Positions 14,496-14,706 of a stretch of 24,028 nt of DNA are shown here, one piece after another. The translations under genes were made by a program, and so were the position numbers. The DNA is taken from assembly GCF_003334305.1 (NCBI RefSeq), contig NZ_QOWS01000037.1. One strand, 5' to 3'. The stretch comes from Escherichia coli. GTDB lineage: Bacteria; Pseudomonadota; Gammaproteobacteria; Enterobacterales; Enterobacteriaceae. How positions within the stretch are numbered: the first letter of the stretch is position 1; each line of letters begins with the position of its first letter. The notes below the pieces were generated by a model. It was not told where the DNA came from. It did no database searches and worked only from the letters and a program-made list of their open reading frames with translations.

Positions 14496-14706
14496 AGGGC
14501 ACCTCTGTATATTCGCCTCTCTGTCGATTACGACTTAAGAATAATGCGCCGTTAAGGGAAGAACAAACAAGTAATGATCTTATGGATTACCATTTTTTTT
14601 GATATTGCTTAAGGTGAAGAGTTCAGAAGGATTTTCCGGGCATTGTCATTTGCATCGTGGAAATAACAATCCCGGAAAAAAATAGCAGTAAGAGATATAT
14701 TAAAGG

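Follow-up and report, generated by a model that had tools for sequence, protein, structure and literature searches.

A conserved, U-poor stem-loop at a mapped RNA 3' end, the probable end of yiiR transcripts, in the yiiR-yiiS spacer of Escherichia coli

Introduction

Rho-dependent transcripts are terminated diffusely downstream and are then trimmed by exonucleases to a protective stem-loop; cases intermediate between the modes of 3' end formation exist (Dar & Sorek 2018). Intrinsic terminators have a hairpin with a G-C-rich base and a short loop, followed by a U-tract of 7–8 nt, and the RNA ends 7–9 nt after the stem. REP/BIME palindromes are intergenic repeats that stabilize mRNA at the 3' end. 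Inverted repeats also occur in protein-binding sites on DNA, such as the box of the acid-resistance regulator YdeO, which consists of inverted ATTTCA hexamers 9–21 nt apart (Yamanaka 2014). Here we analyze an inverted repeat in the spacer between the genes yiiR and yiiS in a 24,028-nt stretch of Escherichia coli DNA (contig NZ_QOWS01000037.1 of RefSeq assembly GCF_003334305.1; called the window below). The spacer is 211 bp long, and both flanking genes are on the - strand. An earlier sequence-only reading had noticed an imperfect dyad with a 19-nt loop in this spacer and considered both the termination of yiiR and the promoter of yiiS unresolved.

We found that the dyad is the core of a conserved stem-loop, that a published RNA 3' end lies just behind it, and that yiiS is transcribed from its own mapped start further downstream. 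The spacer thus does contain both the end of yiiR and the promoter of yiiS, as had been supposed.

Results

The dyad is the core of a long, stable hairpin

The dyad was read as CCGGG (14636-14640), C, ATTGT (14642-14646), 19 nt, ACAAT (14666-14670) and CCCGG (14671-14675), and the sequence bears out these coordinates, as well as those of the neighbouring A7 run at 14676-14682 and of a T8 run at 14593-14600. An exact search for the dyad pattern gave a single match, at 14636-14675, when 0.01 was expected. What did not hold is the 19-nt loop. It turned out that these 19 nt are self-complementary, and RNAfold joins the whole element into one long, nearly continuous stem of 19 + 2 pairs with one bulged G, one C.C mismatch and a 3-nt loop. 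The core of the stem is CCGGG-AUUGU-UAUUU / AAAUG-ACAAU-(G)-CCCGG, at its base are five G-C pairs, and four more pairs come from the flanking T4/A4. The features of the yiiR end are as follows.

14632-14679, - strand: stem-loop of 48 nt and 21 bp, containing the dyad 14636-14675 (RNAfold)
14625, - strand: RNA 3' end (...CCCGGAAAAUCCUUCU-3'; Term-seq of Adams 2021, converted coordinate)
14554-14631, - strand: C-rich, G-poor stretch, candidate Rho loading (rut) region (composition)
14680-14706, - strand: start of the yiiR 3' untranslated region, U-rich and G-poor (C6/G1; sequence and composition)
14707-15147, - strand: yiiR, DUF805 membrane protein, stop codon 14707-14709 (list of open reading frames (ORFs), RefSeq MG1655)
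14196-14495, - strand: yiiS (ORF list, RefSeq MG1655 annotation)

On the - strand, which is the sense strand of yiiR, the hairpin has a folding energy of -22.8 kcal/mol with a z score of -5.19, and 0 of 200 shuffled sequences reached it. The + strand version is folded with -21.2 kcal/mol (z -3.85). When all 60-nt segments on both strands of the 24 kb were ranked by GC-adjusted stability, the hairpin came third, next to the terminator of tpiA. The ranking and the comparison with shuffled sequences indicate that the hairpin is beyond chance. The strongest GC-corrected hairpin of the window lies elsewhere, at 8281-8340 on the + strand (-31.5 kcal/mol), inside a 161-codon ORF (8131-8616, + strand).

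In the RNA, the A7 run is a U7 run in front of the stem, of which the last four U (14676-14679) form pairs with the A4 behind the hairpin. The length and composition of this run depend on the lineage: it is U6 in E2980, U4C3 in Escherichia albertii and U5AU in L028. The Rfam covariance models gave no relevant match over 13500-15500, even at E<=10.

A published RNA 3' end lies just behind the hairpin

The window is a part of the E. coli chromosome, and its position p corresponds to coordinate 4127462 - p of NC_000913.3. For data published in U00096.2 coordinates we used a shift of +1977 to NC_000913.3, which we take to be correct and which agrees with the gene positions in the window.

A Term-seq study reported an RNA 3' end at NC_000913.3 4112837(+), with a score of 1171.9 and the class 'orphan', 130 nt upstream of yiiS (Adams 2021, eLife 10:e62438). 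It corresponds to position 14625, which is 7 nt past the last A-U pair of the extended stem (14632) and 11 nt past the G-C stem. The termination of yiiR therefore need not be called unresolved: an end 7 nt after this very hairpin had already been published. The sequence-only reading was to be given up if the 3' end mapped to a different structure and the dyad was not conserved. We found the opposite on both counts.

The reading had also stated that neither strand offers yiiR a canonical hairpin-then-U terminator, and here two approaches agree with it. A consensus scan called none in the spacer on either strand, and the tail of the hairpin scored 2.85 (89th percentile of the background) versus 3.62 for the tpiA terminator. 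The tail is UCCUUCUG when counted from the extended stem and AAAAUCCU when counted from the G-C stem; it is poor in U: of the first 8 nt four are U, of the first 3 only one. The stem is preceded by the U7 run, and there is no A-tract.

The RNA behind the hairpin is marked by another property. Over 78 nt its C/G ratio is 2.57, the 99.96th percentile of the - strand of the window. The first 32 nt contain 9–12 C and 0–3 G in every Escherichia lineage, despite changes in the sequence, and one lineage with the tail UCUCCCUCAUUUCCUC has no G at all in these 32 nt. From these alignments, the feature of the tail that all lineages keep is C-richness together with G-poverty, and not U content.

Among the operons defined by SMRT-Cappable-seq there is no transcript that contains yiiR (b3921), and no read-through from yiiR into yiiS is recorded (Yan 2018). 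The lack of such an operon suggests that yiiR is expressed at a low level.

The hairpin is conserved as a structure of the sense RNA

Every one of the 5426 complete E. coli genomes contains the spacer and the hairpin, the latter at exactly one place per genome (blastn, word size 11). We compared 11 distinct versions of the hairpin, which came from E. coli strains, divergent Escherichia lineages and E. albertii. All but one of them fold with -19.7 to -23.3 kcal/mol, and 94.8% of the cells that should be paired in the alignment are paired. One pair covaries, being U-A in six variants and C-G in five. Four other pairs have changed on one side to or from G.U, which keeps the pair in the - strand RNA; the same changes produce A.C mismatches in the + strand RNA or in a cruciform. 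The loop varies freely, and so does the bulge, which is G or A, is deleted, or has moved by one position where the opposite arm has a G-to-U change. Over five lineages 83% of the unpaired columns are variable and 26% of the paired ones; for comparison, the value is 45% for the third codon positions of yiiR and 7% for the block 14533-14605 of the yiiS promoter. The - strand fold is more stable than the + strand fold in 10 of the 11 variants. Thus, the check across strains that had been proposed showed the dyad to be kept, with covariation. As far as an alignment can tell, the pattern is what selection on a structure of the sense RNA leaves behind, and not what a sequence-specific protein site would show.

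The arrangement yiiR-yiiS-uspD was found in Escherichia only, in a scan of contigs with YiiS. In the Citrobacter and Salmonella loci, reached through YiiR homologues, yiiR is directly convergent with fpr, REP-type hairpins stand between the two genes, and yiiS-uspD is absent from this place. With no orthologous spacer found outside Escherichia, the covariation analysis is confined to this genus. The REP-type hairpins occupy positions 2950-2990, 2975-3010 and 1945-1985 of three of these loci (L018, L019 and L027, respectively). In Citrobacter rodentium (L017), the region 2970-3275 between yiiR and fpr holds a 101-codon ORF without a Pfam match, and a 13-nt motif recurs there with a 67-nt spacing.

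We also noticed that in the E. coli strain WEM25 (L024) an IS1 element is inserted right after the hairpin (junction after 14629, after ...CCCGGAAAATCC), which parts the hairpin from the yiiS promoter. The spacer match of the genome MSB1_1D (H30) is likewise split.

yiiS-uspD has its own conserved promoter

SMRT-Cappable-seq gives a single yiiS-uspD transcript at NC_000913.3 4112930-4113796, covering b3922 and b3923 (Yan 2018). The yiiS promoter, considered unresolved before, can therefore be placed from this start at 14532.

14532, - strand: transcription start of yiiS-uspD (SMRT-Cappable-seq, Yan 2018)
14566-14561 and 14543-14538, - strand: core promoter of yiiS-uspD, -35 TTGTTC and -10 TATTCT with a 17-bp spacer (placed by eye against the mapped start)
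14593-14600, - strand: A8 tract (T8 on the + strand) at -61 to -68 of the yiiS promoter (alignment)

The 5' untranslated region of yiiS is 37 nt long (14532-14496), and its start lies 93 nt beyond the yiiR 3' end. To this promoter we aligned the regions upstream of yiiS homologues from Klebsiella and Kluyvera, where the gene stands in other genomic contexts. All 10 aligned sequences, which represent three genera, share T14543, A14542, T14541, T14538, T14566 and G14564. The 7% of variable sites in the block 14533-14605 compare with 30–45% at third codon positions. The homology of the yiiS module to the other genera begins at about 14605-14612, and the hairpin is just outside it, at the junction with yiiR.

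The A8 tract is invariant in Escherichia except for one A7, and most of the Klebsiella and Kluyvera sequences have a tract of A4–A5 aligned with it. Its function is probably that of an upstream promoter element (UP-like) or of bent DNA, to judge by this alignment. The same run was rejected as the U-tail of a + strand terminator: the stem before it has only 4 bp (z -1.2). Two other candidates in the spacer were dismissed as well. For a promoter-like TTGTCA-16-AACAAT on the + strand in the hairpin (14643-14670) there are no supporting data, and such matches are about as frequent as chance predicts (3 found, 2.3 expected); a 13-codon ORF (14593-14552) is upstream of the yiiS start site and has no ribosome-binding site.

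Between the A8 tract and the -35 hexamer there is an inverted repeat, GTAAT-N10-ATTAC (14571-14590, -58 to -39 of the promoter), which is invariant in Escherichia. Its TAATCC half is kept upstream of the Klebsiella and Kluyvera yiiS homologues, and it may be a site for a regulator.

Regulators of acid resistance bind the DNA of the spacer

Three regulators have been located in this spacer. For GadX, chromatin immunoprecipitation with exonuclease treatment (ChIP-exo) gave a peak that covers the U7 run and the 5' arm of the hairpin, and our scan with the published motif found a match in the same place.

14664-14684: GadX ChIP-exo peak P41, U00096.2 4110801-4110821, signal-to-noise ratio 43 (Seo 2015, Supplementary Table 3)
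14654-14673, - strand: best match of the spacer to the GadX/GadW motif, AKGKCTGWTWTTWWYMYVAK, 16/20 (own scan, motif from Seo 2015)

A score of 16/20 is the top GadX/GadW motif score of the whole window and is reached at 9 of about 48,000 positions; the motif is degenerate. Differential expression of yiiS-uspD with GadX is not listed ('N' in the table; Seo 2015). The place thus combines in vivo occupancy with a motif match, as a GadX/GadW site should, and has no listed regulatory effect.

YdeO binds the spacer in chromatin immunoprecipitation on microarrays (ChIP-chip) and in an electrophoretic mobility shift assay (EMSA), and its overexpression induces yiiS and uspD, not yiiR, with an effect of about 1.5-fold on a yiiS-lacZ fusion (Yamanaka 2014). 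Near the hairpin, the only hexamer like the YdeO box is ATTTCC (14664-14659), which is part of the GadX/GadW motif match and has one mismatch, and our scan found no inverted ATTTCA partner for it at 9–21 nt. A pair of hexamers with one mismatch each, TGAACT-14-ATATCA, is present at 14625-14600. In Table S1 of Yamanaka 2014 the primers YIIS-LF and YIIS-LR are printed with an identical, evidently unrelated sequence, and YIIR-F-1/R-1 match uspD; with these misprints the boundaries of the yiiS probe and of the fusion are not reconstructable. The binding of the third regulator, AppY, upstream of yiiS was detected by chromatin immunoprecipitation with sequencing (ChIP-seq).

Neighbouring genes

The remaining genes around the spacer, all from the ORF list and the RefSeq MG1655 annotation, are as follows.

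12990-13736, + strand: fpr
13741-14169, - strand: uspD
15248-15847, + strand: yiiQ
15955-16722, + strand: tpiA

Genes fpr and uspD converge with a gap of 4 bp, so that each transcript ends inside the other gene. By Term-seq and SMRT-Cappable-seq, the yiiS-uspD transcript ends at 13666, inside fpr, behind a hairpin of -27.9 kcal/mol (z -4.1) whose tail, UCUUUCAG, is U-poor. The 3' end of the fpr-sense transcript (4113600-) corresponds to 13862, inside uspD.

Discussion

It is quite probable that the hairpin has a role in forming the ends of sense transcripts. Our best explanation, which we hold with about even confidence, is that the dyad is the core of a stem-loop that defines and protects the end of yiiR mRNA by way of Rho termination followed by trimming. 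RNA polymerase leaving yiiR would transcribe the hairpin and then the C-rich, G-poor untranslated stretch. Rho would load on this stretch and end transcription at scattered points, no further on than the yiiS promoter and leader. PNPase and RNase II would then trim the RNA in the 3'-5' direction until they are blocked by the stable stem. The outcome would be a sharp end 7 nt past the stem and a stabilized yiiR message. This message would be kept separate from that of yiiS-uspD, the promoter of which is bound and induced by acid-response activators. With a C-rich tail, no U-tract, no upstream A-tract and low expression, the yiiR end fits the class described by Dar & Sorek (2018). That yiiS-uspD has its own start and a conserved promoter, and is induced by YdeO without yiiR, argues for separate transcription units and supports this explanation.

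Several observations weigh against it. The end at 14625 was called in one of three growth conditions, with a low score (1172). It is not among the bicyclomycin-sensitive regions of Adams 2021; however, these were determined in lysogeny broth (LB) at an optical density (OD) of 0.4, where this end is undetected, so its absence from the list of Rho-dependent sites is uninformative. The upstream part of the yiiS promoter region overlaps with the C-rich tail, the composition of which could therefore have another cause. The divergence within Escherichia is shallow: the covariation amounts to one pair and possibly to a single event. In the strain EC2341 a change weakens the stem to -16.6 kcal/mol. 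Finally, intrinsic termination would likewise place the end 7 nt from the extended stem, and the tail UCCUUCU is not much worse than the tails of the tpiA and uspD ends in the window.

The spacing and the tail lead to the first alternative, a weak, non-canonical intrinsic terminator of yiiR, in which the hairpin releases a part of the transcripts at 14625 over the rU/rC hybrid UCCUUCU. We regard it as possible, but only as a tentative second choice. In its favour are the distance of exactly 7 nt between the last pair of the extended stem and the end, the great stability and G-C-rich base of the stem, and the invariance of AAAAUC right behind the stem in 11 of 11 variants. The longer AAAAUCCUUC is kept too, except in the L028-L031 lineage, which has AAAAUCUCCC. 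Other strong ends in the window have imperfect U-tracts (tpiA, UUACUUUCC; uspD, the tail given above), and the site is missing from the Rho-dependent list, with the limitation just mentioned. However, a tail with one U in the three stem-proximal positions and four in eight is below the threshold of the scan, and its score is that of the upper part of the background. The tail of one Escherichia lineage, UCUCCCUC, has fewer U and more C. E. albertii has kept only one of the four A-U pairs at the base, so that the end would be 10–11 nt away from its stem. What is conserved is a C-rich and G-poor tail rather than a U-rich one, and this speaks for the protective stem-loop of a Rho-dependent transcript.

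The palindrome could also be primarily a DNA operator for the dimeric AraC-family regulators GadX, YdeO and AppY, at about -140 of the yiiS-uspD promoter, the RNA hairpin being a by-product. The GadX peak together with the best motif match of the window, the binding of YdeO with induction of yiiS-uspD, and the AppY binding upstream of yiiS all point in this direction. In addition, ATTTCC at 14664-14659 would be about -131 from the start, which equals the farthest YdeO-box position quoted, possibly for another promoter. Nevertheless, we consider this unlikely. The arms evolve near the neutral rate with pairing kept, whereas the true promoter block is only 7% variable, and the G.U-type changes preserve RNA pairs while they break the symmetry of the DNA. 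The GadX peak is on one arm only, these regulators recognize asymmetric AT-rich sites, and an inverted ATTTCA partner at the published spacing is lacking. GadX has no listed effect on the expression of yiiS-uspD, and that of YdeO is only about 1.5-fold. We take the AraC-type regulator signals on the hairpin DNA to be an overlapping, secondary use of the sequence.

A combined role, in which the same 48 bp act both as the end-forming RNA of yiiR and as a DNA site on which GadX, YdeO and AppY dock, seems improbable to us. If it were true, activators bound during acid or stationary-phase stress might also obstruct or tune the transcription that arrives from yiiR, or else from a sigma-S promoter inside yiiR near 14745, and termination or attenuation at the hairpin would be coupled to the induction of yiiS-uspD.

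Such a sigma-S-type promoter, within the 3' end of yiiR, is also the basis of the next alternative. Transcription starting at about 14745 would give yiiS a long 5' untranslated region with an attenuator in it, and 14625 would be the end of a leader RNA of about 121 nt. The GadX peak is given at +71 in Seo 2015, which implies a start at U00096.2 4110740, that is, 14745; the start sites used there are from Kim 2012. A peak of the RpoS holoenzyme in systematic evolution of ligands by exponential enrichment (SELEX) is at 4110740 within yiiR, and Adams 2021 places the 14625 end, at -130 from yiiS, in the class of 3' ends upstream of ORFs. There is also a promoter-like TTGGCA-17-TATGGT (9/12) at 14786-14758; such matches, however, are as frequent as expected by chance, and this one stops 13 nt short of the implied start. 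SMRT-Cappable-seq gives a single yiiS-uspD transcript, from 14532. An anti-terminator fold is not evident, the 121-nt RNA being the same hairpin with an unstructured leader. An attenuator is thus quite improbable.

The hairpin is very improbable as a functionless relic of REP-type palindromes, left when yiiS-uspD came between yiiR and fpr in Escherichia: Citrobacter and Salmonella do carry REP-like TGCCCGG...CCGGGC hairpins in their yiiR-fpr spacers, that of C. freundii (AATGCCCGG-GTGTTTA-CCGGGCATT) has a core of 9–10 nt (AATGCCCGG / CCGGGCATTG) in common with the arms of the E. coli hairpin, and the homology of the yiiS module starts beside the hairpin, but the core match is short (by a rough estimate, a few per cent by chance) with the arms in swapped order, compensatory and wobble changes keep the pairing while unpaired positions drift, a real RNA end maps to the hairpin, and a relic origin would not exclude a present function. 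The core shared by C. freundii and E. coli may be a trace of common origin.

In this little-studied part of the E. coli chromosome the transcript architecture is now settled: a conserved, U-poor stem-loop stands at the end of yiiR, and yiiS-uspD is transcribed independently, from a conserved promoter of its own. The products of yiiS-uspD are a universal stress protein and a protein linked to acid resistance, and the operon is a target common to YdeO, GadX and AppY. The 3' end and the start site are already in public supplementary tables. To our knowledge, no description of the hairpin, of its conservation or of the overlap with the GadX peak has appeared before. The locus adds no new principle; it is a clean, phylogenetically supported case of a stable 3' end without a canonical terminator.

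Comparison with known systems

The GadX/GadW and YdeO sites of acid resistance resemble the yiiR hairpin in the GadX peak, in the 16/20 match on the 5' arm and in the one ATTTCC hexamer. The hairpin differs from them in that it evolves like a structure and lacks a proper inverted YdeO box; as for expression, no effect is reported for GadX and a modest one for YdeO.

With the REP/BIME stabilizers of mRNA 3' ends it shares the position of an intergenic palindrome after a stop codon, and REP-type hairpins take this very position in Citrobacter and Salmonella. Unlike them, it has no REP consensus and no Rfam match, and it is single-copy in each E. coli genome; the single copy in 5426 genomes rules out membership in this repeat family.

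Like intrinsic terminators, the yiiR element is a hairpin with a G-C-rich base and a short loop, and the 3' end, 7 nt after the extended stem, is within the 7–9 nt usual for them. In contrast to them, it is not followed by a U-tract of 7–8 nt, and the U content of its tail is not conserved. The stem is also unusually long and contains one bulge and one mismatch.

The closest likeness is to the protective stem-loops of Rho-dependent transcripts: a stable stem-loop stands right before a sharp 3' end, with no U-rich tail and no upstream A-tract, C is enriched over G directly downstream, and the gene is low-expressed. The yiiR stem differs in being longer (21 bp) and more A-U-rich than is typical, and its flanks are the reverse of those of a terminator, with a U-run before the hairpin and an A-run after it. 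The hairpin at the end of yiiR is a real but ordinary, U-poor end-of-transcript structure, and it shows every sequence feature tested that defines the protective stem-loops of Rho-dependent transcripts.
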